This document shows positions 2 to 34,900 of a stretch of 64,000 nucleotides of DNA, piece after piece. The notes beneath the pieces were generated by a model. The model made no database searches, was not told where the DNA came from, and saw nothing but the letters and a program-made list of their open reading frames with translations. How positions within the stretch are numbered: the stretch's first letter is position 1; each line of letters opens with the position of its first letter. This DNA is from a virus (lineage: Duplodnaviria > Heunggongvirae > Uroviricota > Caudoviricetes), in IMG/VR virus record IMGVR_UViG_3300045988_155182; one strand, 5' to 3'. A program made the translations under genes and the position numbers.

Positions 2-3000
2 GCCGACGATACCGTAAATTCTCGTGCAATGGCCGCTATCCTCGATCTTCTTGGGGAAGGGGTAATTGGCGGCTTAGTAAATGGCGCAAGATCTATTTTT
101 ATCGACGATCTGCCGATTGTAAATGAAGACGGTTCCTCCAACTTCAGCGGAATCACATGGGATTTTCGCGACGGTTCACAAGACCAGACTCCAATGTCTG
201 GCTTTGATTTCGTTGAAACGCCTAAATCCGTCAATATCCAGTTAAAAAAAACACATTATGTAACGGTTTCAATCGATAACGATGAAGCTGATCGGGTTCG
301 TGTCATCATGAAGTTTCCTTCTTTGCGAAGCATAGATAAAAAAACTGGTGACACGAACGGTACGACTGTTGAGTACAAGTTCCAGATAGCAAATGGCGAC
401 TCAACATTTGTAGATGTGGTCGCTGAAGGTGAAAAAAGCGTTGGCATTAAGCTAACAGCAAAGAAGACCGGCGTTTATTACCGTAGCTATGAGCTGAAGC
501 TGCCTAAGCCTGGACGAGCATACAAGGTTCGTGTGGTCCGTATTACCGATGATAACAGTAGCCAGTATCTCTATAACGATACATGGGTGGATTCAATCGG
601 GGAAATTGTCGATACACCGATGAACTATCCAAACTCTGTTTTGGTTGGATTGAAGGTAAACTCTGAGCAATTCGGCAGCACCATGCCATCTCGCTCTTAT
701 CTGGTGCGTGGCCTAAAAATTCGAGTACCTTCAAACTATAACGAGTCCAGTAACACTTACGCTGGGGTATGGGATGGCACTTTTAAGCTGTTGTCTTCTT
801 CGAACCCCGCGTGGATTCTCTTTGATTTGCTGACCAATGCTCGATATGGCCTTGGTCAGTATGTGTCGGAATCTATGATTGACCTTGGCCAGTTGTACCA
901 GATTGGTCGATATTGTGACGAAGAGGTCGATGATGGCTTTGGTGGCAAAGAGAAACGCTTTGCAATCAATACGCAGATCACCAGTCGACAGGACGCATAC
1001 CGGCTAATTCAGGATATTGCCGGAGCATTCCGCGGCATGGTGTTTTGGGCTGGTGGGATGGTTAACATCATGCAGGATAGCCCATCAGATCCGGTAATGA
1101 TGTTTACCAACTCTAACGTCAAAGATGGATTGTTTACCTATAAAGGTTCTGCGCGTAAAGATCGCCCATCCGTTGCGCTCGTAACCTACAACAACAAGGA
1201 GGACGGTTATAAGCAAAACATCGAGTACGTCGAAGATCAGGACGCAATGCGCCGTTATGGTGAGCGTAAAACAGAAGTCGTAGCATTTGGCTGTACAAGC
1301 CGAGGGCAGGCTCACCGAGTTGGTTTGTGGCTTTTATATACCGCCAGAATGGAGTCGGATGTAATTACATTTACTGCCGGCTTAGACGCGTCATTTCTGA
1401 TGCCTGGTGAAACCGTTCTGATTCAGAACAAATATCGCGCAGGCAAACGTAACTCAGGTCGAATTGTGGCGTTTACCAAAAACAGCGTCACACTCGATGC
1501 GCCTGTGTCGTTAGCCAAAGGCGGCTGCTTTATTCGAATACTGAATCAGGAAGGCAAAATCGTTGAACGCGATGTTCTTGAAACTGGCGAAAATATAACA
1601 AAAGTTACGTTTTCAAAAGCCCTGTCTTCGGCTGAAACGCCTGTTTTGAACGGCGTCTGGACTATTACAGAACCAGACCTCGAACCTATGCGCGTTCGCA
1701 TCGTTAACATCGCGCAGGGGGAAACGCCGGGTAGCTTTGACATCACCGCTGTTGAGAACAATCCGTCTAAATATGAGGCAATCGACAATGGTGCAACGCT
1801 GATCCCGCAGAATACGACGGTATTGGACCCAACTTACTCCAAGCCATCTAATCTGCAAATCACTGAAGGGACTTATCTCTCAAGCCCGGGCAACCTGTCA
1901 GTAAAACTGACTGCAACATGGGAAGGGAAATCTCCAGAGTATTGGATCAGTTGGCGACGTTCTGATGAAAACAATGTATCGAACTGGCAATCGGCGCGTG
2001 TAACCGAAGAGCAATACGAAATCGTTAATGTCGCGGAGAATGGACGCTACGACTTCCAGCTGTATGCGGTTTCATTCAACGGTAAAAAAACAGAGATTAT
2101 CAGTACCGTTTATCAGGTGTTGGGCACAATGACACCGCCGGATGCCCCAACGTCATTAACGGCCGTTGGAGACTATCGTAATGTGATACTGAATTGGGTT
2201 AATCCAGATTCGGTAGACCTTGATCACATTAATGTTTACGCATCCCAGACCAACAATCTGGATACGGCGAAACTGATCGCAGAGTCTGCAAGCACCACCT
2301 TTACACATGCTGGTCTTGGGGATAGCGAAACGTGGTATTACTGGGTTCGAGCATCGAACAAGCGAGGTATGTTAAGTCCTCCGAACTCAAACTTGGGTAC
2401 AGAGGCGACAACTCGCGATGTACTGTCGTTCCTGACTGGCAAAATTACATCTTCCGAGCTTGGTCAGGCTCTGCTTGAGGACATCAACAGCAAAGCCTCT
2501 CAAGAAGCAGTTGACGAGTTAAATGAGCATATCAACCAGAGCGTCGAATCTTTGGAGGGGGCGGTAAACGACGTTAAGGAAGATATAGCTGAATTAGATA
2601 AGCAGTTCAGCGATAACCTCGCGGATTTTGAAATAAAATTCAACGAGCGTAGCGATGCTTTGGAGAACGCACAAACCGAGCTTAAAGGTGAGGTTTCGGC
2701 AACGATCGACAAGGTCAATGAAGCGTTTGAAAAAATTGATGCTACTGATGCTGCAATTGTTGAAATCGAAAACACCGTATCTGAACACGATAAAGCTCTC
2801 GCTAATACAGTCGAGGCAATAAAGGCTGCAAGAGATGAAGCGGCGGCTCTTATTGCTAAGGAAAGCGAGGCTCGTGTTGAAGGCGATGCTGCAAACGCTA
2901 AACAACTGGAAGTGTTGCAGTCAACGGTAGAGGAAAGCTCCGCTGCCGTTGAAGAAATGAAAAAGACGGTTGCAGAGGTCGATCGTGCCAGTGCAGAACT

Positions 3001-4636
3001 GACTACGAACATTGAGGCGTTAGCCAAAACAAATATTGACCTGGCTCTTCGTCAAGATGAAGACCAGCACAAGCAGATGGTCAATAACGCGAAGATCGCA
3101 ACAACACAGAAAACCTTTGCTGATGATATGTCTGCAATGGCCACGAAGGTTGAGGAAATTCGCGTAGAAATTGGCGAAGACATTAAGGCCAGTATTCTGG
3201 AAGAGTCCACCGCTCGTGCCGATGGCGATGAAGCGTTGGCAAAGCGTGTCACTCAGCTGCAATCTAAGTTTGAAGGAGATATCAGCGCGGCGATTAGTAC
3301 AGAGCAGGAGGCTCGTACATCTGCCGATGAAGCTCTGACGACACAGATCACTCAGCTTGAGTCGAAAGTAAGCAACGATATCGTCGCAGCCATTAAGGAA
3401 GAGCAAGAAGCCCGAGCAACGGAAGATTCGGCTCTGGCAAGCCAGATCACCCAACTTCAGGCAAAGGTTGATGATGATATTTCTGCTGCAATACGTAGTG
3501 AGCAGGAGGCCCGAGCAAGCGGGGACTCTGCGTTAGCCAAACAAATAAACCAGCTTCAGTCAAAGGTTGACGGTGATATATCCGCTGCCATCACTCAGGA
3601 GCAGGAGGCCAGAGCAAGTGCTGACCAGGCGCTCTCACGAGAAATTAACAGCCTGCGAGCACAAACCGGAACTGATATTGCCGCAGCGGTTGCTGTAGAG
3701 ACAAAAGCAAGGACTGATGCCGATAGTGCATTGTCTACCCAGATTACGTCTCTTACAGCAAAAGCTAATGATCTCGAGGCGTCTCTTGCCAGAGAAACAA
3801 CGGCTCGTGCAGATGGTGATACCGCTTTAACAAAAGAGGTTTCAAATTTAAAAGCACAGACAGCGAAAGATATTAGTGCGGCCGTTGCAGTTGAAACGCA
3901 GGCTCGAACTGATGCTGACTCGGCGTTGTCGTCTCAGATCACCAAGCTGACCTCTCAATACAAAGAGGATATTAAAGCGGCTGTAGCAACCGAAACGAAA
4001 ACGCGTACAGAGCAAGATGCTGCATTGGCGACTCAAATCACAAACTTAGAGTCTCAAACGGCAGCCAACATTTCCGCGGCGGTAACAACTGAAACGACAG
4101 CGAGAACGCAGGCAGATAATGCTCTGAGTGGGCGAATCGATACTCTGAAAGCAGAGGTGGATGGAAATACCGCGACAATTCAACAGCAGGCAACAGCTAT
4201 TGCTGATACCAACAAAAAAGTATCAACCGCGTGGACGTTGAAAATGGAGACTTCAACGAGCGGAGGGCAGAAGTATGTTGCCGGTATTGCGCTTGGTATT
4301 GACACCACTGGGCTATCTCAGTTTTTGGTTCAGGCGGACAGGTTTGGTTTGGTCAACTCTGTTAACGGGAAGATCACAACGCCATTTGTTATCGAAAACA
4401 GTATCGCCTATATGAATGGAGCGTATATCAAGGATGGCACAATCACCAATGCAAAAGTAGGCGATCTGCAATCTACCAATTTTGTTAGCGGTAGATCTGG
4501 ATGGCGGTTCGGCAAAAATGGAACGCTTGAGATCAACGGTAATAGCGGCGGCAATGGGCGATTGGTTATAAATGGTCAGCGGATTGACGTTTATGACGAT
4601 AACAACGTCCTACGAGTAAGAATTGGCCGTCTGTGA
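2..4636 (+). CDS. Central tail fibre / host-specificity protein (lambda J-like); 5' end lies upstream of the window
   Basis: Reading frame is open to the window edge, so the ATG at 29 is not the true start. N-terminal two-thirds carries J-like motifs (SEQFGS...RVPSNYN, FGCTSRGQAHRVGLWL). C-terminal third has a tandem coiled-coil repeat stalk, then a J-type distal domain (KYVAGIALGID...SQFLV). Confidence 0.85.
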   Translation, partial: ADDTVNSRAMAAILDLLGEGVIGGLVNGARSIFIDDLPIVNEDGSSNFSGITWDFRDGSQDQTPMSGFDFVETPKSVNIQLKKTHYVTVSIDNDEADRVRVIMKFPSLRSIDKKTGDTNGTTVEYKFQIANGDSTFVDVVAEGEKSVGIKLTAKKTGVYYRSYELKLPKPGRAYKVRVVRITDDNSSQYLYNDTWVDSIGEIVDTPMNYPNSVLVGLKVNSEQFGSTMPSRSYLVRGLKIRVPSNYNESSNTYAGVWDGTFKLLSSSNPAWILFDLLTNARYGLGQYVSESMIDLGQLYQIGRYCDEEVDDGFGGKEKRFAINTQITSRQDAYRLIQDIAGAFRGMVFWAGGMVNIMQDSPSDPVMMFTNSNVKDGLFTYKGSARKDRPSVALVTYNNKEDGYKQNIEYVEDQDAMRRYGERKTEVVAFGCTSRGQAHRVGLWLLYTARMESDVITFTAGLDASFLMPGETVLIQNKYRAGKRNSGRIVAFTKNSVTLDAPVSLAKGGCFIRILNQEGKIVERDVLETGENITKVTFSKALSSAETPVLNGVWTITEPDLEPMRVRIVNIAQGETPGSFDITAVENNPSKYEAIDNGATLIPQNTTVLDPTYSKPSNLQITEGTYLSSPGNLSVKLTATWEGKSPEYWISWRRSDENNVSNWQSARVTEEQYEIVNVAENGRYDFQLYAVSFNGKKTEIISTVYQVLGTMTPPDAPTSLTAVGDYRNVILNWVNPDSVDLDHINVYASQTNNLDTAKLIAESASTTFTHAGLGDSETWYYWVRASNKRGMLSPPNSNLGTEATTRDVLSFLTGKITSSELGQALLEDINSKASQEAVDELNEHINQSVESLEGAVNDVKEDIAELDKQFSDNLADFEIKFNERSDALENAQTELKGEVSATIDKVNEAFEKIDATDAAIVEIENTVSEHDKALANTVEAIKAARDEAAALIAKESEARVEGDAANAKQLEVLQSTVEESSAAVEEMKKTVAEVDRASAELTTNIEALAKTNIDLALRQDEDQHKQMVNNAKIATTQKTFADDMSAMATKVEEIRVEIGEDIKASILEESTARADGDEALAKRVTQLQSKFEGDISAAISTEQEARTSADEALTTQITQLESKVSNDIVAAIKEEQEARATEDSALASQITQLQAKVDDDISAAIRSEQEARASGDSALAKQINQLQSKVDGDISAAITQEQEARASADQALSREINSLRAQTGTDIAAAVAVETKARTDADSALSTQITSLTAKANDLEASLARETTARADGDTALTKEVSNLKAQTAKDISAAVAVETQARTDADSALSSQITKLTSQYKEDIKAAVATETKTRTEQDAALATQITNLESQTAANISAAVTTETTARTQADNALSGRIDTLKAEVDGNTATIQQQATAIADTNKKVSTAWTLKMETSTSGGQKYVAGIALGIDTTGLSQFLVQADRFGLVNSVNGKITTPFVIENSIAYMNGAYIKDGTITNAKVGDLQSTNFVSGRSGWRFGKNGTLEINGNSGGNGRLVINGQRIDVYDDNNVLRVRIGRL
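3202..4190 (+). repeat. About 10 tandem 99-nt (33-aa) coiled-coil repeats inside the J-like gene
   Basis: Repeating unit E(Q/T)(E/K)AR..AD.AL..QIT.L.(S/A)KV..DI(S/A)AA(I/V) read directly from the translation. Confidence 0.8.
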
Positions 4637-4667
4637 TGGTGGAAAAAAAATTTTATATCGGTAAAAA

Positions 4668-4686
4668 TAGGTAAGTATTTACTTAA
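4668..4686. promoter_or_regulatory. Dispersed palindrome copy (TAGGTAAGTA-TT-TACTTAA) between the J-like and stf genes
   Basis: TAAGTATTTACTTA core; the same core recurs at 23354-23375. Confidence 0.45.
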
Positions 4687-4729
4687 TGGCGGGCAAGGAT
4701 AACCCGCCAAATCAAGGAGCATATTCAAC

Positions 4730-7700
4730 ATGTGGTACAGGGAAGGTACTATCACATTTACACAGGGTAGCAATACTCTGGTTGGGGCAGGGACAGCCTG
4801 GAACGTAACAGCTAATGGTGTGTTGCCGGGGATGATCGTCATTGGCCCCGACAATAAGCTGTATGAGATCAAGCGCGTAATAAGCGATACGAATATTGTT
4901 CTCTCAGAACCTTATACCGGCGAAACTCAGTCTGAGGTTCCGTGCCGAATCATTACGACCTATGAAGGCGACTTAACACAGTTTAGCGCGCGCTTTACTG
5001 CGCTAATGTCGCGTATGTCGGCTGATTCCAAGTCCATGCGCAGTTGGTTGACTGCGCTGGATGAGGTGACAATCGAGCGTGAAGACGGTACAGAAGTAAC
5101 CGTTAAGCCGCTAATGCAGATCGTCAACGAGCACAACGAAAACGTTGAGTGGTATAAAAATAACACTGACGCGATTGATGCTGCTGGCGACAAAGCTCGT
5201 GAGGCGGCGGCCAGTGCTGCCGCAGCAGCAGAAAGCGCCAATACCGCTGGAGAAAAAGCCTCTCAAGCGTCTCAAAGTGCATCCGCTGCGGCATCCTCAC
5301 AAAGTGCCGCAAGTGCGAGTGCAACTGCTGCGAAAAAATCTGAAACGAATGCCGCAGCGTCACAACAATCAGCAGCCACTTCTGCATCCACCGCGACCAC
5401 GAAAGCGTCAGAAGCTGCCACCTCAGCCCGGGATGCGGCGGCCTCAAAAGAGGCAGCGAAATCATCAGAAACGAACGCATCCTTGAGCGCCAGTAGCGCA
5501 GCTTCCTCGGCAACGGCGGCAGGAAATTCCGCGAAGGCGGCAAAAACGTCCGAGACGAACGCCAGGTCTTCTGAGACGGCAGCGGGACAGAGCGCCTCAG
5601 CTGCGGCAGGCTCAAAAACAGCGGCTGCGTCGTCTGCCAGTGCCGCGTCAACAAGTGCCGGGCAGGCCTCAGCCAGTGCCACCGCCGCCGGAAAATCGGC
5701 AGAAAGTGCCGCATCGTCTGCTTCAACAGCCACAACGAAGGCTGGCGAAGCCACTGAACAGGCCAGCGCAGCAGCGAGGTCTGCTTCCGCAGCGAAGACA
5801 TCCGAAACGAACGCGAAAGCGTCGGAAACCAGCGCAGAATCCTCAAAAACGGCTGCCGCATCGTCCGCCAGTTCGGCGGCGTCATCGGCATCATCTGCGT
5901 CTGCTTCAAAAGATGAGGCGACCAGACAGGCGTCAGCAGCGAAGGGCAGTGCCACGACGGCATCCACGAAAGCAACAGAGGCGGCAGGCAGTGCGACGGC
6001 AGCATCTCAGAGCAAAACTGCTGCTGAATCCGCTGCGACCCGTGCGGAAGCTGCTGCTGATCGTGCTGAAGAGATTGCCGGTGCAGTTGCGATGGAAGAC
6101 GCAAGCCTTACAACTAAAGGTGTTGTGAAACTTAGCAGTGCTGTTGATAGCACCAGTGAATCGCTGGCCGCAACGCCAAAAGCAGTTAAAGCAGCCAATG
6201 ACAATGCGAATAGCAGGGTGCCATCTAACCGAAAAGTTAACGGAAAAGCACTGACTGCGGATATAACATTAACGCCGAAAGATATTGGTACTTTAAATTC
6301 AGTAACGATGTCTTTCTCTGGCGGGGCTGGGTGGTTCAAACTGGCTACGGTTACCATGCCACAAGCGAGTTCCATCGTTTACATCGCATTGATTGGTGGC
6401 GCTGGTTACAACGTCGGTTCCCCACATCAGGCAGGCATTTCAGAACTGGTTCTACGAGCAGGCAATGGAAACCCCAAAGGAATTACCGGGGCTTTGTGGA
6501 AGCGTACAGCCGTCGGATTAACGAATTTCGCCTGGATCAACACATCCGGCGATACATATGATATTTACGTTGAGATTGGCAATTATGCGACTCGTGTAAA
6601 TATCCATTGGGATTGTACTGCAAATGCGACAGTTTCTATTTATACATCGCCAACATATTCAGCGAGTAAGCCTTCCAGCGTTACCGATGGTGTTGTTTAT
6701 ACGATGTATAGCTCACATCAGAAACCGACGCCGTTAGATATTGGAGCACTGCCAACAACCGGAGGAACAGTTTCAGGTCCGTTGTCTGTTACAGGTGGAT
6801 TAACTGGTTCATTGAATGGTAATGCAAGTACAGCCACGAAATTGCAGACGGCAAGATCTATCGGTGGAGTTGTTTTCGACGGTTCTGCAAATATTAACCT
6901 TCCAGGTGTAAACACTACGGGTAATCAGAACACCACTGGTAATGCTGCAACTGCTACAAAACTTCAGACGGCAAGAACTATCGGCGGCGTGAGCTTTGAT
7001 GGTACTGCGAATATTAATTTGCCAGGTGTTAATACGACTGGTAATCAGAACACAACGGGCAACGCGGCTACTGCTACGAAGTTGCAGACTGCGCGTACTA
7101 TCAATGGGGTGTCGTTTGACGGCTCGGCAAATATTGCCTTGTCGCCAGCAAATATAGGTTGCCCGGCATCTCCTACTGGTTGGCTTGTAACAGGTGATAA
7201 TGGAGCTTCAATAACAACAGAGCAATTAGTGACTCTGCTACGAGATAATGGTGCTTTTAGTGTAAAGGCATGGATAGCGCGTTGTGCCTGGGCGTATGCA
7301 AATAGTGCATCCATACCAGACAGCGAAACAGGATGCGGCATTATTCCACTGGCTGGCGCAGTTATTGAGGTATTTAATAAAGGCAGTAGCTCAAACAATT
7401 ATACGATTCGTATAACAACGGCAACAACGACAGGTGTCTCTGGCGCACTCACTAATGCGGAGTTTGTCTATGTGTTTAATGGGACGACCTATTCACCAGG
7501 ATGGCGCAGAGCGTATAACACTAAAAACAAGCCTACTGCGGCTGATGTCGGAGCTTTACCACTATCTGGAGGGGCGTTAACTGGCGGATTAACTGCTGCT
7601 GGCGAGATAATTTCCAAATCGGCGAATGGTCTGCGCATTGCCTACGGAAACTACGGATTCTTTATCCGAAATGATGGATTGGACACATATTTCATGCTAA

Positions 7701-9181
7701 CAGCATCAGGAGACACATTAGGTTCATGGAACGGTTTGCGACCTATTACAATTAATAATACCAGCGGTTCTGTGTCCATTCGTAATGGACTCAATGTTAC
7801 TGGCGGCATCAATGGTAGTTTGAACGGTAATGCTGCAACTGCAACAAAACTGCAAACAGCACGCACAATAGGCGGAGTGTCATTCGATGGCTCCGCCAAT
7901 ATCAACCTGCCGGGTGTAAACATTGCTGGTAACCAGAACACTACCGGTAATGCAGCGACAGCGACCAAGTTGCAGACAGCATGTACTATCAACGGCGTCT
8001 CGTTTGATGGTTCTAAAGATATTGAACTTAACCCACGGTCTATAGGCACGATCAACTCCACAACAATGTCATTCAGCGGTGGTGCTGGTTGGTTCAAATT
8101 AGCAACGGTAACCATGCCACAGGCGAGTTCTGTTGTTTCAATTACGTTGATTGGTGGCTCGGGATTTAACGTGGGGTCACCTCAACAGGCAGGTATATCT
8201 GAACTTGTTTTGCGTGCAGGTAATGGTAATCCGAAGGGGATTACTGGTGCTTTATGGCAGCGCACATCGACAGGGTTTACAAATTTTGCCTGGGTCAATA
8301 CATCTGGTGATACTTACGATATTTACGTTGCAATCGGAAATTATGCGTGGCGTGTAAATATTCAATGGGATTATACCAGTAATGCCAGCGTGACGATTCA
8401 TACGTCACCAGCATATTCTGCTAATAAGCCGGAAGGGTTAACGGACGGTACAGTTTATTCACTCTATACGCCATCAGAGCAGTTTTATCCGCCTGGCGCA
8501 CCAATCCCGTGGCCATCAGATACCGTTCCGTCTGGTTATGCCCTGATGCAGGGGCAGACTTTTGACAAATCTGCCTACCCGAAACTTGCAGCCGCTTATC
8601 CGTCAGGCGTGATCCCTGATATGCGTGGCTGGACGATTAAGGGCAAACCCGCCAGTGGTCGTGCCGTATTGTCTCAGGAACAGGACGGCATTAAATCGCA
8701 CACCCACAGCGCCAGCGCATCCAGTACGGATTTGGGGACGAAAACCACATCGTCGTTTGATTACGGAACCAAATCCACGAATAACACCGGGGCGCATACC
8801 CATAGTATTAGCGGGACTGCAAATAGTGCAGGTGGGCACCAACACCATAGTTCTGGACCATATGCGAATTCTAATGATGGTGATCTCTTTCCTAACGGTT
8901 ATACCCAGGTTTCAGCCACAAACAAACCAGTTGTACCACGGCAAGGTGGCCAAGGTATGGCCCGTTTATCAGGGAAAACATCATCAGATGGAGCACATAC
9001 CCACTCGTTATCCGGTAGTGCCGCAAGCGCAGGTGCTCACGCACACACTGTTGGTATTGGTGCTCATACGCACTCCGTTGCGATTGGTTCACATGGACAC
9101 ACCATCACCGTTAACGCTGCTGGTAACGCGGAAAACACCGTCAAAAACATCGCATTTAACTATATTGTGAGGCTTGCATGA
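4730..9181 (+). CDS. stf: Side tail fibre protein (lambda Stf-like)
   Basis: 1483-aa ORF with RBS-like context. Ala/Ser-rich SETNA-type low-complexity N-terminal region, internally duplicated domains, and a C-terminus with the Stf/T4 gp37-type His boxes ([52 protein letters not shown]). Confidence 0.9.
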
Positions 9182-24764: not shown

Positions 24765-25673
24765 TTAATGATTGCCTAGATATGATTTTAGTTCTTCTTT
24801 AATGATTAGTGAGTATTCTAAAATATCACTTAGTAAAAATTTTGCTCTGTTAAAATACCCACCAAAAGAACCTAAAATTTCAGATGGTCTTTCTAAGAGC
24901 ATCACAATATCATCTTCTTGCACTTTAGTAATGTAACTTCTAACAGCTCTTTCTCCAATAACTCTTTTCTTACCGTTTATTTCAGATTCATCTAAAACCT
25001 TATTTATAAATTTTTCTGTATCATTGAATCGTCCACTATTGTGTACTATTGTATGTCTTAGTAGTTCAATTAGCTTGATGTTAAAGCGATAGTTTTTGCC
25101 AATCTTGTTGTTTGTTTCTATCTCTTTGAAGCCAGGTATTTTATTTCTGAAAATTTTAGTTATTTTTTTCGATGGGTTACTTTTTGCTTTTAATAATCTG
25201 TAATAAACTTCCCTTTTCCCAATTTCATCATCTTCAACCTTACCAAAATCACTTGAGGACCATAAATCATTTCGAACACATACAGTATAGACATATATTG
25301 CCTCAATATAGTCTTCCAGTAACTCATAGGCTTCAGTAATAACCCACTGATATTGTTTATTTTTCAAAGTATTACACAATCTTATCTTTTCTTCTAAATC
25401 AATGGCGCTGTTACCTATCTCTAATGTTGAACCTGTATATGGGTTTGAACATAAATGGCGAGCTAACGTTGTGCCACACTTAATCTTAATAGTTTCATTA
25501 ATATTAATAATAGTATCTGGATTCTGTGCATACTCCACTTCTTTAAGAAGACGTTTTATATTTTTCTTTGTTGTATCATTTATCTGATTTAAATAGTCAA
25601 AAAGTAAAGATATTTCTTCTCTAAATTCGTTGTATTTATTTTCAATCAAAGAATCAGACAACTTACCAATCAT
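24765..25673 (-). CDS. A+T-rich hypothetical protein with HEPN-type Rx4H motif (candidate abortive-infection RNase)
   Basis: 302-aa ORF with A+T-rich codon usage unlike its neighbours; motif LLRHTIVHNSG (R-x4-H) in the C-terminal half; isolated between terminator and tRNAs. Confidence 0.5.
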   Translation of the reverse strand: MIGKLSDSLIENKYNEFREEISLLFDYLNQINDTTKKNIKRLLKEVEYAQNPDTIININETIKIKCGTTLARHLCSNPYTGSTLEIGNSAIDLEEKIRLCNTLKNKQYQWVITEAYELLEDYIEAIYVYTVCVRNDLWSSSDFGKVEDDEIGKREVYYRLLKAKSNPSKKITKIFRNKIPGFKEIETNNKIGKNYRFNIKLIELLRHTIVHNSGRFNDTEKFINKVLDESEINGKKRVIGERAVRSYITKVQEDDIVMLLERPSEILGSFGGYFNRAKFLLSDILEYSLIIKEELKSYLGNH

Positions 25674-26302: not shown

Positions 26303-27406
26303 ATGAAAAATAGCTTTGACAGAGCACGCGCTGCGGAGAACACCTCAAAAGAGGCGATAGAGTATCTCGAAAGAGCATCTCAAATGCAGGCCGTTATGAT
26401 CTCCCAGGTCAGCAATGACATGAGATTCTCGGACGCATTCATGTTATTCACTCGCTTATCTCTGCTGATAACCAGACGTCGGCCAGAGATCGCTGTTCAT
26501 TGTATTTTGATACATGTTTTGCCGCACATTGCCGATGTAAAAGTAAGTGACATTAATAGGTTCATGGTGAACCAACTGGTCAACCCACTAATACTGGATG
26601 GCAAAATTGTTATGGGCCGCCGCGTTTTCTCTCTGATGAAGCAGTTCCTTAGCTGGTGCGCCTTCCAGGGGATGATAGACGTGTCACCGTTGAACGATAT
26701 GTCACTTAACAAAGTTGCCGGTGGCGCAAAGCCCACACCTCGCGAGCGGAAGCTGACCGACGCAGAGGTATGGGTGTTCTGGAATATATGGGACTACTTC
26801 AATGTGTGTGCTGGTACAAAATGGGCGGCCAGGCTATGTCTTGTATCCGCAAGACGACCTGACGAAGTACTGCGGGCTAAAAAAAGTGAGTTCAATCTTA
26901 AGCGTGGGGTTTGGAATCAAGGCAAGAGGAACAAATCTGCCCGTGAGCATTCTCTGCCTTTAAGCTCATTAATGCGCACTTGTATTGAAGAGTTGTTCGA
27001 ATATGGTAAAGACAGCCAGTGGCTCGTGCCTTCGAATAAAAAAATCGGGAAAGACCTTCCTATGTCTAAAGTGGCAATAGCCCAGGCATTACGTCGTATT
27101 CTGGAACGACCAGAACTGATGGAGCTTGAGCCATTTACACCCCGAGATTTGCGCCGTACTGCGCGTAGTTACTTCCCAGCATTAGGCATAAGCCAGGAGG
27201 TATCACGTAAAATCATGAACCACAGTCTTGAGGGGATAGATCGGGTCTACGACCGGCACGATTATATGGACGAGATGCGAGACGCCTTAGAAAGTTTCTC
27301 GACGTACATCGCATCAATCGTAGAGCAACCGGATTTAGACGAAATTGACCACAAATTTAAGGGAGATCGTCTATCAACAGAGCTTATTCGTGTAAATTTT
27401 TCATAG
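26303..27406 (+). CDS. Tyrosine recombinase / integrase
   Basis: C-terminal catalytic region with RDLRRTARSY and HSLEGIDRVYDRHDY (H-x-x-R...Y pattern); start codon uncertain. Confidence 0.7.
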   Translation: MKNSFDRARAAENTSKEAIEYLERASQMQAVMISQVSNDMRFSDAFMLFTRLSLLITRRRPEIAVHCILIHVLPHIADVKVSDINRFMVNQLVNPLILDGKIVMGRRVFSLMKQFLSWCAFQGMIDVSPLNDMSLNKVAGGAKPTPRERKLTDAEVWVFWNIWDYFNVCAGTKWAARLCLVSARRPDEVLRAKKSEFNLKRGVWNQGKRNKSAREHSLPLSSLMRTCIEELFEYGKDSQWLVPSNKKIGKDLPMSKVAIAQALRRILERPELMELEPFTPRDLRRTARSYFPALGISQEVSRKIMNHSLEGIDRVYDRHDYMDEMRDALESFSTYIASIVEQPDLDEIDHKFKGDRLSTELIRVNFS

Positions 27407-27787
27407 AGACTTTATGGCCTCAACAACCTTTTGTGATGCGCCTTTCTCTTTACCGAATCGCTCGTTATATGCAGCAAGAACCTGTTTTTCGTCCTCGTTA
27501 AGAGGAGCAGTGCCTTCTTTGTATAAAAATGCTGCGAGTTCGGGTTGGCGTTCTTCCAGCACCATCATCATAAGACGACTTGGCTCAATGCCCAGTGCCA
27601 GCGCCAGCGGACGAACCTTATCGATAGGCAAAGGAATTTTGCCGCTTTTAATTAAAGAAAGGTTGTTGGCGTTTTTATACCCAATTGTTTTGGCTATCTG
27701 GGCCTGGCTCATAGGTGAGGATTCAATCAACCCTGCGATAAAAGCAGCGTAGCGACTTTCTATAAATTCAATCTTGTTATCAGACAT
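27401..27787 (-). CDS. XRE-family HTH transcriptional regulator (repressor-like)
   Basis: HTH SQAQIAKTIGYKNANNLSLIKSGK; convergent with the recombinase, divergent from the downstream block. Confidence 0.6.
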   Translation of the reverse strand: MSDNKIEFIESRYAAFIAGLIESSPMSQAQIAKTIGYKNANNLSLIKSGKIPLPIDKVRPLALALGIEPSRLMMMVLEERQPELAAFLYKEGTAPLNEDEKQVLAAYNERFGKEKGASQKVVEAIKSL

Positions 27788-28038
27788 GGTTACAACCTTT
27801 GCGCGTTCAATTCTCTCTGGTAAGTGCTTACCGATATTACATCAAAGGTTAGGGTTGTAAAGCTATTATCATTTTTTTCGATAGGCACTTAAAAGACCGG
27901 TTAAAGGCCATTGCACGGAGAAAAATTAGCCCAAAACAGGTAAGAAAATCAACTTGCATATGATATGAATGTATTCAGTATTGATACAAATTTTAGTAGT
28001 ATTCCTTACCATAGTATAAGTTAGAATGGATTGATTGA

Positions 28039-28251
28039 ATGAACACCACTATTTCCAGCCTAATCGCTCTTGAGATCGGACACGTACAGAAATTAGCTGA
28101 TGAGTGTGTAGCTGACATCCTCACCGATCTACCGAATGAGCAGATTCAGGTTGGTGTGAATGACACAACTGGATTTATATTCGAACTTAACAACAAACGC
28201 TTCACGCTTCTCAATACCGGCTCCGGGTCTTTAGCCGTCAGAATCTGTTAA
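28039..28251 (+). CDS. Hypothetical small protein
   Basis: 70-aa ORF divergent from the XRE regulator. Confidence 0.35.
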   Translation: MNTTISSLIALEIGHVQKLADECVADILTDLPNEQIQVGVNDTTGFIFELNNKRFTLLNTGSGSLAVRIC

Positions 28252-28349
28252 CCCCTCTTCTCCCTGCGCGAATGGCTTAGTTCCCTGTTCGCGCAGTGCT
28301 ACATTAAACACACTAGTAAATAATTTGTTTTCATAACAAAGGATTAGCC

Positions 28350-30458
28350 ATGTCTAAAAAACGTTCCATCAAAGAGGTTCAGGACTTCCGTGACAGTGTA
28401 AAACGAGTAGTCGCTCTCCTTTCAGGTAAAAACATCCCTGTTGCAGAACGAGGGGACGACGCTTATGTACGCTATAACGATGATGGAGAGCCAATTCTCG
28501 TAAACATCCCATCAATCCCGGATAACGCAACACCGGCATTGATGAATGCTGTGCGCGGATTTCTCGATCATGAGGTTGCTCACATTTTGTTTACCGATAT
28601 TCGTGTGTCCAACAAAATGAGAGAAAAAGGACGCGTTCCTTCCTGGTCGCTATGGAATGCCTTAGAAGACGTGTTCATCGAGCGAAAAATGGGTCAGGTC
28701 TTTAACGGAACAAGACGTAATCTGATGGCAACTCAGCGCCTTATAATCGAAAAAGTCTTTAAACCAAAGGCTTCAGAGGCTATTGCTTATTGTGGCAAAG
28801 ATCAGCGCGCGCTTTTTCTAAACTTCTTTCTCTGTCCGGTTGTAAGAGCCTGGGATGGCCAAGCACCGTTCGTAGACTTCATGGATGAATATTGGCCTGT
28901 CATTGAGAAACCAATTTCATTATTAAAAGAACATGGTATCGATGTGGCCGTGCGTAACATGTCTTGCACCGAGGATTGTGTAAAGGTGGCTGCGACCATA
29001 GCTAAGATCCTCAAAGACACTGAAAGTGAAAGCAAAGGTAAGGAGTCAGCTCCGGGAAAAACTTCCGATCCTTCAGACGCTGACCAGACGGATGCCTCTG
29101 GAGAAAACAATGAAGACAACGAAGATCATGAGACACCCTCATCGTTAGATAATCACAAATCTATTAAATCAGAGTCACATAGTAAGTACAAACATGATAA
29201 TAACGACAGTGATGACTCAGATAATCCTGAATCATCAGAAACAATATTCGATGATACAGAAAATGATAAAGCGGTATCAGATTCTGATGCTTCTGATAAC
29301 GCGGCGTCAGAATCATTAACCGCTGACCACGAAAAAAGAAAAACGACAGAAGACGGCTCTTCAGACATTCCAACTCCGTCAAAAATGAGTCTGGAAGAGG
29401 CTTTAGAGGAGTTGGATAGCATGGAAGATGAAGTCGGAGGCATGACAGAAGATGCGCTATCCGAAACGATTAAAAGCGAGTTAACAGAAAGCTCGAAAAG
29501 CGAATACAGGCCATACAATCGCTCATACGACTTCATCGGCTCGATTGATCAGGCAGAAGCCCATATCAAACGGCTTATTAAAACATTCTCCGATATTGAT
29601 TTAGGTGGATATCCAATCAGCCGTTATCGCATCGTTCCTGAAGGCAACCAACTCTTCGACAAATATATTGAAAAGCACCTTTCGTCAGGTGTTTCGTCGA
29701 CGCTGGCAAAAGACCTGGAACGTGCAATAGCAAGCAGAAACAGAGTTCAGTTTATACCTGGCCAGCGTCGGGGGCGCATTCATGGTTCAAGTATCTACAG
29801 ATTAACAATGAATGATGATCGCGTGTTTCGTAAAAAAGAAGAATCTAAAGCCGTTAACGCCTGTGTTCAACAAGTGATTGATTTATCGGGTTCAATGAGT
29901 GGCGAAACGATAAAACTAGCTCTTGCAAGTGCATATACCATCGCCGATGCACTTGATCGAATAAATGTTCCCAACATTATCACCGGCTTCACTACATTTG
30001 GCAGTCATATGGCAGCAGGAGAACTTAAGGCTATCAAATATGAGTTCTCTCGCTTTGAATCTTTAATGCTACCTATCATCAAAAATTGGAATGAAAAAGC
30101 AAATTCTCGCGAAGTTCGCTCACGTATGGGGTGCGTAGGCTACACATTCCCACTTCTTAATAACGTGGATGGTGAAAGCATAGCCAGCCTTGCATCGTTA
30201 TTTTCCGGTCGCTTGGAGGACAGGAAGATCATGCTTGTTCTGAGCGATGGCGCGCCGTGGGCTGTTGGGAGAGGTTTTGACGCCCATTTGCGGTCGGTTA
30301 CGAAGCAAATTGAAACGCAGACTGACATTGATTTGATGGCAATTGGCATCATGACTGATGCACCGGAGAGATTTTACGCAAATCATGCCCTGGTAACTAG
30401 TGTTGATAGTCTTGGTTCATCTGTAGTTACTGAACTATCTCGTATCATTTTGAAATAA
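28350..30458 (+). CDS. vWA-domain protein (CobT-like) with N-terminal HExxH motif and acidic linker
   Basis: MIDAS motif DLSGSMSG; HEVAH near the N-terminus; long Asp/Glu/Ser-rich low-complexity middle; paired with a downstream AAA ATPase. Confidence 0.55.
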   Translation: MSKKRSIKEVQDFRDSVKRVVALLSGKNIPVAERGDDAYVRYNDDGEPILVNIPSIPDNATPALMNAVRGFLDHEVAHILFTDIRVSNKMREKGRVPSWSLWNALEDVFIERKMGQVFNGTRRNLMATQRLIIEKVFKPKASEAIAYCGKDQRALFLNFFLCPVVRAWDGQAPFVDFMDEYWPVIEKPISLLKEHGIDVAVRNMSCTEDCVKVAATIAKILKDTESESKGKESAPGKTSDPSDADQTDASGENNEDNEDHETPSSLDNHKSIKSESHSKYKHDNNDSDDSDNPESSETIFDDTENDKAVSDSDASDNAASESLTADHEKRKTTEDGSSDIPTPSKMSLEEALEELDSMEDEVGGMTEDALSETIKSELTESSKSEYRPYNRSYDFIGSIDQAEAHIKRLIKTFSDIDLGGYPISRYRIVPEGNQLFDKYIEKHLSSGVSSTLAKDLERAIASRNRVQFIPGQRRGRIHGSSIYRLTMNDDRVFRKKEESKAVNACVQQVIDLSGSMSGETIKLALASAYTIADALDRINVPNIITGFTTFGSHMAAGELKAIKYEFSRFESLMLPIIKNWNEKANSREVRSRMGCVGYTFPLLNNVDGESIASLASLFSGRLEDRKIMLVLSDGAPWAVGRGFDAHLRSVTKQIETQTDIDLMAIGIMTDAPERFYANHALVTSVDSLGSSVVTELSRIILK

Positions 30459-30473
30459 TTAAAACAGCCTTAA

Positions 30474-30493
30474 TGATAAGTAACTACTTATCA
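30474..30493. promoter_or_regulatory. Perfect copy of the dispersed intergenic palindrome TGATAAGTA-AC-TACTTATCA
   Basis: 9-bp perfect inverted arms; lies between the vWA gene stop and the AAA gene. Confidence 0.5.
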
Positions 30494-30553
30494 TAGTTAA
30501 TGGTATATTTATATAAGAACTTGAACGCTCATTAGAGAACAAAGGAAAAGCGC

Positions 30554-31789
30554 ATGACTACTACTGCACTGCAAAATGATAAAAATCCTTCTGATTACCT
30601 TGTTTGCAAGTGGTGCGGCAAATCATTTCACTATTTTAAGTCCCATGTAGCCAATGGTAATTGCGAGGGCATTCCTGAGTCAGTAAAAAATGCCGATCCT
30701 GACACCGTACTGAAAATGTACACAACGCAGTTTCCAGATGAACCAACGCTATCGAAAAAGGCACTTGATGCAATTCAAGCTAAACGTGCCGAGCAAAAAA
30801 GCGAAATGGCGAAATCTTCTGGCTTGACCAGTAGCCCAGGCTACACAGGCACAGTTGAGTACAAGACAGATCTGGTCGCAGCTCACGAACTGCTAAACGT
30901 AACGGTGGAAGAACTCGGAACAAAACGTGGGACGCCGCTCATGGTTAGCGTCAACGTCAATACGCCGTATCCAGAGTTCGTTCCAGAAGTGAAGAAGGGC
31001 TACGTATATGGCGACTTCGAACTGATCAAAGATATTTTCATGATGCTTGAACTTGGCATACCTGGCTATTTGTGGGGTCATGCAGGAACAGGCAAATCGT
31101 CATTGCCTACACAGCTATGTGCTTTGCTCAATCGTCCGTTGATCCGTGCCCAACATACAGCATCAATGGAAGAGGCACATGTTACGGGGCAAATTCTGGC
31201 GCGTGATGGCTCTACGTATTTCGAGCCTGGCTTGCTTGCGCTCGCAATGAAGCATGGCTGGGTTTACCTCGCGGATGAATACGACTTTGCGTTTCCACAA
31301 ATTCTTGGCGTGTATCAGCCAGTGCTGGAAGGTGAGGCGTTGGTCATCAAAGAGGCAACTCCAGAATGGCGTCGCATTACTCCGCATGAACGGTTTGCTT
31401 TCATTGGCACTGGCAACACAAACGGTTCTGGTGATGAAACCGGCTTGTACCAGGGTACAAACATCCAGAACGCCGCGAACTTTTCGCGTTTTGGCATCGT
31501 TTCGAATGTGAAATACATGAGCAAAGAGGCAGAGATCAACATGTTGATAAATGCCGGTATCGTGGATGAATACGCAGAAAAGATGGTTAAGTTTGCCGGT
31601 ATCGTTCGCGATGGATACGAAGAACACCTTATCAGTCAGCCAATTGGCCCTCGTGAACTTTTGTTGTCGGCCAAGATTGGAATGATGCGAGGCGACTTTG
31701 TGACAGGTATTGAGCGTTCTTTCATTAACAAACTCCCTTCAGCTTCTGCACAAGCGGCTCGTGAAGTTGTTCAAAAAATATTTGGTTAA
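30554..31789 (+). CDS. AAA+ ATPase (CobS/MoxR-like)
   Basis: Walker A GHAGTGKSS; N-terminal Cys cluster CKWCGKS...C; conserved initiation context. Confidence 0.6.
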   Translation: MTTTALQNDKNPSDYLVCKWCGKSFHYFKSHVANGNCEGIPESVKNADPDTVLKMYTTQFPDEPTLSKKALDAIQAKRAEQKSEMAKSSGLTSSPGYTGTVEYKTDLVAAHELLNVTVEELGTKRGTPLMVSVNVNTPYPEFVPEVKKGYVYGDFELIKDIFMMLELGIPGYLWGHAGTGKSSLPTQLCALLNRPLIRAQHTASMEEAHVTGQILARDGSTYFEPGLLALAMKHGWVYLADEYDFAFPQILGVYQPVLEGEALVIKEATPEWRRITPHERFAFIGTGNTNGSGDETGLYQGTNIQNAANFSRFGIVSNVKYMSKEAEINMLINAGIVDEYAEKMVKFAGIVRDGYEEHLISQPIGPRELLLSAKIGMMRGDFVTGIERSFINKLPSASAQAAREVVQKIFG

Positions 31790-31969
31790 TCGTGCGTAAA
31801 GGATGTTTCGGCTCTCTTATCGCTGCTTCTGAAACTGGCAAGGCTTGTCTGGGGTGTCCAGACAAGCCCGATTGTCACCAATCAGCAAAAGAAGTTGCGA
31901 TTTCGATGTATGGGAAGTTCGTAGGCTTCCCCAATGACAAAATCAAAAAAACCAGAAAGGTAAAAACAC

Positions 31970-34900
31970 ATGAAGGCACTGATGGTTCGAACTGACTTCT
32001 CACTTGGGGAGTCGGCTCTAAAAGCAGAAAACGCGGTGAAGATTGCCAGAGAAGCTGGCTACACCGCTGTAATTTCAGCAGATAGCATGAATATTGCAAG
32101 TGTTATTCCACTACAACGTGCCGCTGGTGACGACATGGCGGTTATTTGTGGTGTGAAACTAAACATTGTTGATGATCCCACATACGAGCACCGGGCTAAA
32201 CTTGCTAAAGAATCTATGAGATGTATGGAATCATTAGAGCGGGGACGTAACTACTCGTTTACCGCTCTAATTAAAAATGAGCAAGGATATCGCGACATCT
32301 GCGAACTAATGACGGCGGCCAACACACGAGAACAGTTCTACTTTGTACCGCGTCTCTCGCTCGAACAGTTGGTTTCTACATATGCCAAAGGCAACATCAT
32401 CCTGCTTACTTCCGACATCGGTAGCGTGTTCCAACGCAACGATTTTGCAAAAATCATAAGCACACTGATTACAGCGGGTGGAAAAGACAACTTCTATAGT
32501 GTGGTTTATCCGCATCCTACCCCATTCTACGACCAGATTAACGTCCGGGCGATGAAAGTCGCCAGCGCATTGAAAATAGAGCCAGTGGCGTTCTATCCCG
32601 CTTATTACGAATCGATCGACGATGCAGACATTAAAGACATTGCGCACATGGTTACGAACAACATCAAAATCGACCAGCCGCATCGTCTGCGTATCCCCCA
32701 CCAGCGAGATAACGCCGTCAATGGTCGCCGCCATCTCCTTGAGGCGCTTAAAGCCTTCTCCGTTCGCATGGATGTGCCGGTAACAGCTGCAATGGCCTCA
32801 ACAACGCAGGATACCATTATCGATGCCTGCACATGGCGCTGGCATGAATTGCCGCCAGCACTGCCAAAGATGGCAGACGACGAGCCTGCAACGCTTATGA
32901 AACTGGCTGTTGCAGGGCTGCGTAAACGTCTTACCACAAAAGAGTTTGGATACACACCACCTGCTTCAGAGAACAGGGTTTATGTTGAGCGGCTAAAGTA
33001 CGAAATGGACACGCTGACTCGCCTGGGATTTTGTGGTTACTTCCTGATGGTACGCGATCTGATGAATCATAGTCGTGAAACTGGCATTCCCGTTGGGCCT
33101 GGTCGTGGTTCCTCTGCCGGTTCTCTGGTGGCGTGGTGCATAGGCATAACCAACGTCGACCCAATCCGTCACGGTCTTCTGTTTGAGCGTTTCATCAACC
33201 CTGAGCGTCTCGACTTGCCGGATGCGGACTTGGACTTCAGCCAGGCACGTCGCCATGAGGTGATCGAGTATCTGAATGAACGCTACGGCGAAGATTACGT
33301 TGCGGGTATTCCGAACTTCACCTACCTGGGCGCAGCCTCTGCACTACGTGATACCGCTCGTATTTATGGTGTGGAGTCCGCAGATATGGCGGTATCAAAA
33401 GAACTGAAGAACGCTGAGGATGATAGCCTTCCATTGGAAGAACTGCGCGAACAACTGGCAAGTCTCGACAAATACGCAACAAAATATCCTGATGCATTCA
33501 ATGCAGCCTGCAAGTTACAAAGCCTTATGCGTGGCTTTGGTAGACATGCGGCAGGGATGATCGTAGCAGGTGTTCCTCTGACAGAACGTACACCGGTTGA
33601 GCGCCGTGGTGACGCGCGTTGTATCGCATTTGACAAGCGTTACTGCGAGGCTATGGGCCTAATTAAGCTGGACGTGCTTGGCCTGGCAACTCTCGATTTG
33701 CTCGATAGTGCAAAACGCTACATAAAAGAGAACACAGGTGAAGATATCAATCTTGATGCCATTTCTCTTGAAGATCGCAAGGTGCTGGATGGTTTTGCTG
33801 CTGGGTACACTCAAGGTGTTTTCCAGCTTGAATCAGGCCCAATGCGCAAGCTGCTTAAAGATTTAGGTGGTGGAATTGAGCCAATGAGCTTTAAAACGGT
33901 CGTCGCTACAACTGCGCTCTTCCGGCCGGGGCCAATTCAATCAGGCATGTTGGATGACTATGTTTCTGTCGCCAAAGGCTTTATGACGCCGGAATCATTA
34001 CACCCCGTTCTTGATGAACTTACCGCGGAAACAAATGGCGTGATTCTCTATCAGGAACAGACGATGAACGCGACTCGATTGCTTGCCGGCTTCACAATGG
34101 CTGAAGCTGACGCTGTGCGTTCCGCAATCGGTAAGAAGAACATGGAAAAAATGAAGAGCATGGGCGAGAAGTTCATCGTTCAGGCTCAAGCTGGCTGGAT
34201 AGACGTTGAGCTGGAAGATGGCACTACACAGCGCATTCACCGTGCGGAACATTTTAAATGCGAAGACGGAACTCTGAAAACTGTCGAAGAGGCACTTGAG
34301 CACGGCGCAAAACTACCTATAAACGCAGTACGCGTTACAGCGTCACATCCAGGGCTATCAGAGATGAAAGCGAAGGAGATCTGGACCGCATTTGAGAAAA
34401 ACGGAGCCTATCAGTTCAATAAATCACACTCCGTTGCTTATTCTTTAATCAGTTATCAGTCTATGTGGCTAAAGACGCACTACCCTGCTGAGTTCTTCGC
34501 AGCTGCGCTCACCATTCTGGGCGAGGATAAGCATCAGGGGCTGGTGAAGGATGCGCTGACCTATGGCATTCGCGTATTGCCACCAGACGTTAATGTGTCA
34601 TCTAACCGAATTGAGATCCGCACACTCGAAGACGGCAGTCAGGCACTGTATGCGCCATTCTCTGCTGTGAAAGGCTGTTCTGAAAATGGTTGTCAGGCAA
34701 TTATGCGTGCGCGTGAGAAAGTTGGTGGCAAATTCGAGTCAGTGGCACAATTCGATGAAGCGGTCGAGAAGCGTGCATGTAACAGTCGTGTACGCGAGTC
34801 GCTTCATAAAGTAGGGGCTTTTGCGTCAATTGAGCCAGGCAGTCTGCCAGCAACTGATCCTGAACGACTGCGCGACCAGGCTGAGCTGATGGGCAATCTC

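Follow-up and report, generated by a model that had tools for sequence, protein, structure and literature searches.

Genes resembling cobS and cobT are core genes of T4-like cyanophages and are routinely counted as cobalamin auxiliary metabolic genes when viromes are studied. A widespread viral cobST cluster was described by Liu et al. 2021 (PMC8651126), who proposed that it hijacks the host CobN and deemed the 'peptidase' label of the cyanophage gene a mistake. Iyer et al. 2021 (PMC7824862) described a phage pair consisting of a MoxR ATPase and a von Willebrand factor A (vWA) protein with an N-terminal metallopeptidase, for which they proposed functions in virion assembly and proteolytic processing. 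Here, we describe a pair of this kind at positions 28350-31789 of a 64,000-nucleotide stretch of the virus record IMGVR_UViG_3300045988_155182, referred to as the window. A preliminary description of the window, made from the sequence alone, had noted that chelatase-like pairs occur in phages, which is indeed already in the literature (PMC7824862, PMC8651126).

The window represents a phage-plasmid of the SSU5 type. Over 8 kb, it shares 99.7% identity with many E. coli plasmids of ~110 kb, and it is 95-97% identical to the Escherichia phages Cyrano, CMS-2020a and PhiR41_1, and the last of these (~95% identity) is recorded as growing on E. coli K-12 MG1655. Plasmid and phage records already label the two genes 'cobalamin biosynthesis protein CobT' and 'AAA family ATPase', or 'porphyrin biosynthesis protein', and the pair is an ordinary, already annotated member of a described class; the gain is a sharper, testable question and not a new kind of system. 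On balance, we favour the view that the pair is a phage-type MoxR-class motor-adaptor machine homologous to CobS/CobT, which does not serve as a chelatase in this element and would act as an early remodeller, possibly a protease. The evidence for this view consists of the domain composition, the conservation of motifs, the fold, the absence of CobN and of B12-dependent genes, and the synteny.

The CobT-like protein carries a conserved, putative zinc motif

The CobT-like adaptor gene (28350-30458) and the gene of the CobS-like MoxR-class AAA+ ATPase (30554-31789) lie on the plus strand, as do all of their parts described below, and code for 702 and 411 amino acids (aa), respectively. The limits of both open reading frames (ORFs) are exactly those given in the preliminary description, and the matches in Pfam, NCBIfam and PDB agree with its assignment to a CobT/CobS-like pair of a vWA protein and an AAA ATPase. 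The CobT-like protein matches Pfam CobT (aa 9-292, E 6e-27), Pfam CobT_C/vWA (aa 492-701, E 6e-83) and phrog_1576 (E 5e-301), whose function is given in PHROGs as unknown. Its closest solved relative is the Brucella CobT 9uka, which matches the C-terminal half (E 4e-17). An AlphaFold2 model built with 75 homologues reached a mean predicted local distance difference test (pLDDT) score of 84.7 and consists of an N-domain (aa 1-230), a disordered segment with pLDDT below 50 (aa 243-337) and a C-domain (aa 340-702).

As whole-chain Foldseek searches were swamped by the vWA domain, the N-domain was modelled separately. It is predicted to adopt an M48-like zincin fold (28350-29039). The putative zinc-binding and catalytic motif HEVAH (H74, E75 and H78; aa 74-78, 28569-28583) directly follows D73, and the next helix of the model (aa 97-117) carries the sequence NALEDVFIE (N103, E106, D107 and E111; 28656-28682), a 'glutamate helix' with a candidate third zinc ligand. 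When the N-domain was searched against 1.8 billion representative proteins, 1138 relatives were obtained and the motif was scored in the best 150. HExxH was present in 148 of these 150 representatives (33-73% identity), and DHExxH in all 120 close relatives (120/120). Among 128 full-length homologues, D73, H74, E106 and E111 were conserved in 100%, E75, H78 and D107 in 99%, and N103 in 96%. A locus search with the family alignment recovered only close SSU5-type loci and its pattern included DHEV, so that it was not used for motif frequencies. Judged by this conservation, the HExxH pattern is not due to chance. A lack of conservation of HExxH in homologues had been named in the preliminary description as refuting its reading; instead, the motif is near-invariant in the phage class and sits in a predicted M48-like zincin fold.

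The motif is also kept in distant phage members, namely RHEph10, ICP2 (HECYH), roseophage CRP-810 (HEAGH) and cyanophage P-HM1, whose 'peptidase', encoded next to cobS, has both HEVGH and DWSGS. At the aligned positions, true CobT proteins read DSMALR (S. meliloti), DAFALR (Cereibacter) and DAAALQ (Pandoraea), the crystallised Brucella CobT reads D80-S-M-A-L-R85, and the cellular CobT-like proteins of Caballeronia and Photobacterium read DASALR and DAISLR, respectively. The zinc motif is, hence, missing in 6/6 cellular CobT or CobT-like proteins checked; in true CobT, H74 is replaced by S or A, E75 by M, F or A, and H78 by R or Q. The pseudo-peptidase state of the N-domain of the cellular members is not found in the phage CobT-like protein, in which HEVAH is intact. 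The protein has no profile match to any Pfam peptidase family. The predicted zinc site is probably active in most lineages.

Linker, shaft and vWA domain

Between the two domains lies an acidic, Ser-rich disordered linker (aa 229-345, 29034-29384), recognised by its pLDDT, composition and length variation. It comprises 117 aa, of which 47% are D, E or S, with 33 D+E versus 12 K+R. In 128 homologues, linker lengths lie between 27 and 255 aa (median 134; 42% Asp+Glu), whereas the domains on either side are of constant length. The disordered linker of true CobT has ~90 aa (bioRxiv 10.64898/2026.07.21.739949). The acidic linker is best read as a family-wide flexible charged tether that is not peculiar to this locus.

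The C-terminal part contains a putative shaft (aa 463-502, 29736-29855), which aligns to Q373-R413 of the Brucella CobT (9uka_G), the segment that enters the pore of the CobS ring (bioRxiv 10.64898/2026.07.21.739949). G471, G475, position 482, D489, R491 and F493 are conserved in the alignment of homologues. The shaft leads into a vWA domain (29859-30452) with a complete MIDAS (metal-ion-dependent adhesion site) formed by D511, S513, S515, N605 and D633, the first three within DLSGSMSG (aa 511-518). Each of the five residues is conserved in at least 99% of the 128 homologues, and they align in the same order to D422, S424, S426, N518 and D546 of the Brucella protein. The best Foldseek matches of the C-domain were the vWA domain of NorD in NorQD complexes and the MIDAS domain of midasin (MDN1).

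The CobS-like ATPase

The CobS-like protein matches Pfam AAA_5 (aa 173-293, E 2e-15) and phrog_249 (E 2e-106), annotated as 'porphyrin biosynthesis'. Its best solved relative is the Brucella CobS 9ujv (E 1.8e-25 over aa 142-411), and NorQ and CbbQ are relatives detectable by sequence. Alignment with true CobS located Walker A (GHAGTGKS, aa 175-182, 31076-31099), Walker B (ADEYD, aa 240-244, 31271-31285), the sensor-1 N in GTGNTNG (31406-31426), the Arg finger in FSRFG (31481-31495) and the sensor-2 R in GPRELL (31646-31663), all of them intact; the roles of these residues were taken from bioRxiv 10.64898/2026.07.21.739949. An intact ATPase of the AAA_5/MoxR-chelatase type thus adjoins a vWA protein with a full MIDAS, as in other MoxR-class AAA+/vWA pairs, and, as in viral cobST, a zincin-vWA protein with HExxH stands next to a MoxR/CobS-like ATPase in a tailed virus.

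The ATPase has an N-terminal extension of ~90 aa that true CobS lacks. It contains the zinc-finger-like motif C18-x2-C21-x4-H26-x4-H31-x5-C37 (30605-30664), which is kept in SSU5-type relatives and nickie, is degenerate in RHEph10 and is absent in ICP2 and in true CobS; this element has no Pfam family match. The helix-2 insert is shorter than in true CobS. With the motif located at C18-C37, the N-terminal Cys cluster of the preliminary description was recovered along with its HEVAH (aa 74-78), acidic stretch (aa 229-345) and DLSGSMSG (aa 511-518).

In Brucella, R76 and D80 of CobT form salt bridges to the small subdomain of CobS (bioRxiv 10.64898/2026.07.21.739949). In the alignments, these residues correspond to R69 and D73 of the phage adaptor, and E308, Q311 and R312 of CobS to E404, Q407 and K408 in the phage ATPase. 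Because the interface residues align with conserved residues, the docking mode of CobST is probably kept.

Distant homologues of the CobS-like ATPase (~25% identity, E ~1e-7) were also observed among the early nucleotide-metabolism genes of Kayvirus and Listeria A511-like myoviruses. The homologue of Staphylococcus phage S25-3 (locus L101, 6704-7822) has no evident CobT-like partner nearby; a 682-aa 'PcfJ domain' protein is encoded ~1.7 kb upstream of it.

Absence of CobN and of B12-dependent enzymes

The NCBIfam equivalog models for cobaltochelatase subunits gave scores far below their cut-offs, with 68.8 bits versus 759 for TIGR01651 (CobT) and 84.8 versus 559 for TIGR01650 (CobS). No CobN or other cobalamin gene was found in the window, whose two giant ORFs code for the tail-tip J protein and the tail fibre, and none was found among the listed genes of a 99.7%-identical complete plasmid, for which the PLSDB gene table is incomplete. 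The element encodes no B12-dependent enzyme, and its ribonucleotide reductase (RNR) belongs to class Ia, which is not B12-dependent. These results bear out the preliminary description, which had placed such pairs in phages without any cobalamin pathway. To our knowledge, the hosts of the element (E. coli, Salmonella and Klebsiella) have no CobN, nor does V. cholerae, the host of ICP2, and we know of neither CobN nor de novo corrin synthesis in E. coli K-12. Moreover, the cobT-like gene precedes the cobS-like gene here, whereas the order is cobS-cobT in the bacterial operons examined.

A cobaltochelatase role was rejected for this element, given the lack of CobN and of B12-dependent enzymes and the scores below the equivalog cut-offs. 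With no third subunit present and a zinc site of the protease type retained in the adaptor, it is almost certain that the pair does a different job. Hosts that lack CobN, a close relative that grows on K-12 and the retained zinc site together argue that, at least in this large group, the genes are wrongly annotated as cobalamin genes.

A cellular pair of an AAA ATPase and a CobT-like protein, in the order cobS-cobT and without HExxH, was observed on Caballeronia pNK83 (locus L096, 4127-7734). It adjoins a convergent gene for a 'GTP-binding protein' and a gene for an amidohydrolase instead of cobalamin genes, and is possibly a further bacterial case of the CobST scaffold serving a purpose other than chelation.

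The gene pair is part of a replication module

The gene pair is located within the replication module of the window. Upstream, the gene order is DnaB-like helicase, primase, ligase, glutaredoxin, integrase, XRE regulator (minus strand), 70-aa ORF, cobT-like and cobS-like; downstream follow a 67-aa ORF, a fusion of DnaE with a family-4 uracil-DNA glycosylase (UDG), a gp32-like single-stranded DNA-binding protein, a 5'-3' exonuclease and a RecA-like protein, beyond which the module continues with SbcCD-like proteins, NrdAB and ThyA. The pair thus has a divergent region flanked by a repressor just upstream of it, and the phage DnaE follows directly downstream.

The order cobT-like, cobS-like, small ORFs or a sigma factor, DnaE-UDG, gp32 and exonuclease was also found in RHEph10 (Rhizobium), nickie (Pseudomonas) and two metagenomic contigs, at ~30-40% protein identity. 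In an Acinetobacter phage-plasmid, the pair is followed by a sigma factor, and DnaE was not seen in the stretch retrieved. All these elements, the Acinetobacter phage-plasmid included, probably share one ancestral module. In podovirus ICP2, the pair is followed by three small ORFs, primase, helicase and a family-A polymerase, and in the T4-like cyanophage P-HM1 the genes gp47, gp46, 'peptidase', cobS, one ORF, gp45, gp44 and gp62 follow each other. A cobT-cobS pair within the replication module was, therefore, found in three unrelated lineages: the supergroup of SSU5, RHEph10, nickie and the metagenomic phages, ICP2, and P-HM1. In roseophage CRP-810, the order is cobS-cobT and the pair lies in the early region. 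Proteins in which a structural relative of the N-domain is joined to a vWA domain are encoded by siphoviruses, podoviruses, myoviruses, haloarchaeal tailed viruses and actinophages. A match in Xanthomonas phage JGB6 was left out, its annotation being fragmented and probably ridden with frameshifts.

A model for the function of the pair

What we infer for this machine concerns the geometry of the complex, its catalytic activity, the timing of its expression and the nature of its client. By analogy with the solved CobST and CobSTN structures, six CobS-like ATPases would form a ring, into whose pore the pre-vWA shaft of the CobT-like protein (aa 463-502) would be inserted. The N-domain would dock on the small subdomain of the ATPase, where D73/R69 match the Brucella salt-bridge residues D80/R76, and the flexible acidic linker would tether the two halves of the adaptor. 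The client would be gripped by the N-domain on one side and the MIDAS face of the vWA domain on the other, in the place that CobN has in the chelatase, and ATP hydrolysis would exert mechanical work on it. With a complete HExxH plus Glu site retained in the predicted M48-like fold of its N-domain, the adaptor would probably cut the captured client, or at least bind it via the metal. The location of the pair, and its presence in the replication module of three lineages, point to an early action in the replication phase and to a protein client, which could belong to the phage itself or be a factor of the host or a protein of a defence system; expression probably coincides with that of the replication genes. 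Nothing usable on the transcript timing of viral cobS/cobT was found in the literature.

Several observations weigh against this reading. The zinc ligands are lost in nickie (DSEISK), in Acinetobacter phage-plasmids (DQEVAK) and in P0266 (HQVAL), the last being a representative protein without genomic context, and nickie and the Acinetobacter element keep the gene pair and the layout of the locus without intact ligands. Since the ligands have been lost in some phage lineages, proteolysis is not indispensable to the class, and a purely mechanical function may be what is conserved at its core; in most lineages, strong selection thus acts on catalysis or metal binding, which can nevertheless be dispensed with. 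Furthermore, the phage ATPase lacks the last ~16 residues (helix alpha10) of true CobS. As this helix provides a hydrophobic patch and is part of the interface between CobS and CobT_N in Brucella (bioRxiv 10.64898/2026.07.21.739949), docking without it may differ from that in Brucella. The position in the replication module may only reflect early or middle expression timing, three lineages are a small sample, and replication and nucleotide genes make up about one third of a phage genome. Finally, no experimental work on any viral member was found in the literature.

The CobT-like proteins without the His ligands of HExxH are those of nickie (locus L086, 5732-7816) and of the Acinetobacter plasmid pAba10324c (locus L098, 4912-6834). 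Both retain E75, the downstream Glu, the MIDAS and the neighbouring ATPase, and they represent natural 'zinc-site-dead' forms for separating a mechanical from a catalytic role.

A bolder form of the motor-adaptor reading, which we consider possible though rather doubtful, is an ATP-driven 'clamp-and-cut' protease, in which MIDAS and zincin would grip a specific host protein, the ring would pull via the shaft and HExxH would cleave. The target would be, for example, a defence effector or a DNA-bound obstacle to the replication of the phage. If this were true, the machine would have a pseudo-protease relative in the CobT of the real cobaltochelatase, and the abundant 'cobS/cobT auxiliary metabolic genes' reported from marine and gut viromes would be misassigned.

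Alternative functions

The possibility that survives best, although we regard it as unlikely, is a role in counter-defence or host takeover, in which the machine would capture a host protein at the onset of lytic replication and inactivate it by unfolding or cleavage. In a transposon study, a MoxR ATPase of the V5-like phage Bas54 was needed against a predicted defence system (bioRxiv 10.1101/2025.11.20.689424). However, a search of V5-like phages for homologues of the CobS-like ATPase gave none at E up to 0.01, and the candidate orthologue in rV5, gp004, is a generic AAA protein without similarity to the ATPase (BLASTP E 3.4) and without a vWA neighbour. The link to Bas54, for whose gene bas54_0063 gp004 is a candidate orthologue, was kept as an analogy only. 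The pair is, moreover, part of the conserved core in several groups of phages, while genes for anti-defence tend to be accessory. PADLOC offered no hits in favour of this function: the ATPase had no match, and a marginal DrmE match (E 7e-4, 16 bits, aa 340-533) starts in the linker, so that membership in a defence system is unsupported. An ImmA-like cleavage of the neighbouring XRE repressor was also considered and rejected as a general function, because the strictly lytic ICP2 and T4-like cyanophages have the pair without such a repressor.

Less probable still is a morphogenesis function, as put forward by Iyer et al. 2021 (PMC7824862), in which the pair would help head or tail assembly as a chaperone and the peptidase would process structural proteins. 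The architecture of the pair is identical to that described by these authors, and a viral MoxR-vWA precedent for tail assembly exists in the Acidianus two-tailed virus (cited in PMC7824862 and PMC7159879). Nevertheless, every lineage examined has the pair in its replication or early arm and not among the structural genes, and in ICP2 it is encoded on the strand opposite to all structural genes. The head and tail genes of the near-identical complete plasmid NZ_CP020118 are ~20-45 kb away from the pair, and in the window the tail-tip and tail-fibre ORFs (29-9181) lie ~19-28 kb upstream of it.

We give a similarly low weight to a chaperone that inserts a metal cofactor into a phage enzyme of replication or nucleotide metabolism, for instance into NrdB (di-iron centre) or DnaE (PHP metal site). 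In parallel to NorQD, CoxDE and CobST, the HExxH/Glu site would then handle metal, with no cleavage of peptides. Many MoxR-vWA pairs are metal-insertion factors (bioRxiv 10.64898/2026.07.21.739949), the vWA domain comes closest in structure to NorD, and the pair adjoins DnaE and shares its module with NrdAB. But ICP2 has the pair and neither RNR, DnaE nor any other annotated metalloenzyme, which weakens the case for a dedicated maturation factor of RNR or DnaE, and T4-like cyanophages use a different polymerase; for these two reasons, there is no phage metalloenzyme common to all carriers.

A genuine cobaltochelatase motor, in which viral CobST would dock to the host CobN or to a CobN/ChlH-like protein and boost cobalamin for replication (Liu et al. 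2021, PMC8651126), can draw on the clear homology to CobS/CobT, including shaft, MIDAS and interface residues, and is plausible for phages of CobN-bearing hosts (Rhizobium, Roseobacter, cyanobacteria, haloarchaea), but it is highly improbable here, with CobN lacking in both the element and its hosts, no B12-dependent enzyme, equivalog scores ~ten-fold (CobT) and ~seven-fold (CobS) under the cut-offs, a zinc site missing in every true CobT examined, and the gene order cobT-cobS.

Upstream control region and neighbouring genes

The region upstream of the pair (27401-28251, without assigned strand) comprises a gene for an XRE/helix-turn-helix regulator (27401-27787, minus strand), which adjoins the integrase gene, a divergent intergenic region of 251 nucleotides (nt) facing this regulator, and the 70-aa ORF (28039-28251, plus strand; phrog_2627), which leads into the cobT-like gene. 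The divergent region carries an 8-bp inverted repeat (27794-27801 / 27843-27850), and a 9-bp inverted repeat, CTGCGCGAA/TTCGCGCAG (28264-28296), lies between the 70-aa ORF and the cobT-like gene. Going by its layout, which is the same in the Acinetobacter phage-plasmid, the upstream region might control the gene pair, and the interval 27401-28349 is possibly a lysis-lysogeny switch governing the cobT-cobS-dnaE block. The spacer of 95 nt between cobT and cobS contains a perfect 9-bp inverted repeat, ATGATAAGT-AACT-ACTTATCAT (30473-30494, no strand), which was missing from the listing of the repeat tool and was confirmed by script. This palindrome may function as an operator, as an RNA hairpin or as a processing site.

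The Cys-rich 67-aa ORF downstream of the pair (31792-31995, plus strand; C5, C19, C22 and C28) has a GTG start 3 nt past the stop of the cobS-like gene and overlaps the start of dnaE (31970) by 26 nt. It has a full-length match to phrog_6337 (E 3e-46), is not among the genes tabulated for the near-identical plasmid and lacks an obvious Shine-Dalgarno sequence; its position is taken by a sigma-70-like gene and other small ORFs in other lineages. The phage DnaE (31970-35488, plus strand) contains PHP, Pol III alpha, finger and HHH domains and, at its C-terminus, a family-4 UDG-like domain (aa ~1053-1168), a fusion also present in RHEph10 and the metagenomic relatives.

Farther upstream, a 302-aa ORF (24765-25673, minus strand) without a Pfam or PADLOC match lies in the stretch of lowest GC content in the window (0.384), and its place in the near-identical plasmid is taken by another hypothetical gene, of 420 aa, which suggests that the interval between ligase and glutaredoxin/integrase is a hotspot for variable cargo. 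Outside the window, NZ_CP020118.1 carries apbC (iron-sulfur cluster carrier) and metG (methionyl-tRNA synthetase) at 2594-5885, an unusual, host-like cargo for a phage-plasmid.

Comparison with known systems

The interest of the locus lies in the intact zinc site of the phage protein against its loss in six cellular proteins, in the placement in a replication module and in the E. coli system, which makes it a genetically tractable test case for the real function of viral cobST.

The phage pair resembles cobaltochelatase CobNST (EC 6.6.1.2; Brucella 9uka/9ujv) in its AAA+ core with all catalytic residues, in the M48-like N-domain, disordered acidic linker, shaft and MIDAS-bearing vWA domain of CobT, and in the salt-bridge residues between CobT_N and CobS, which align with conserved residues of the phage proteins. 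It differs from CobNST in lacking CobN, in falling below the equivalog cut-offs, in keeping HExxH intact where true CobT has S/A-x-x-x-R/Q, and in the gene order cobT-cobS. Unlike true CobS, its ATPase has the zinc-finger-like extension of ~90 aa, a shorter helix-2 insert and no alpha10.

The motor-adaptor-client logic is shared with NorQ/NorD, CbbQ/CbbO, RavA/ViaA and midasin, whose clients are known (NorB, Rubisco, fumarate reductase and pre-60S factors, respectively), but the adaptors NorD, CbbO, ViaA and midasin have no peptidase-like N-domain. In contrast to the M48 peptidases (Ste24/ZMPSTE24, HtpX, BepA) and related gluzincins, the phage protein is soluble, fused to a vWA domain and partnered with an AAA+ ATPase. 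The locus belongs to the phage class 'MoxR AAA+ – vWA with N-terminal metallopeptidase' (PMC7824862), which is the same as 'viral cobST' (PMC8651126), and it shares architecture and the cobT-cobS pair with the cyanophage core genes 'peptidase' and cobS. Within viral cobST, the ATPase of the SSU5 type stands out by its additional zinc-finger-like extension, and, unlike what has been published for the class, neither virion assembly nor the hijack of CobN fits well with a replication-module context and hosts without CobN.

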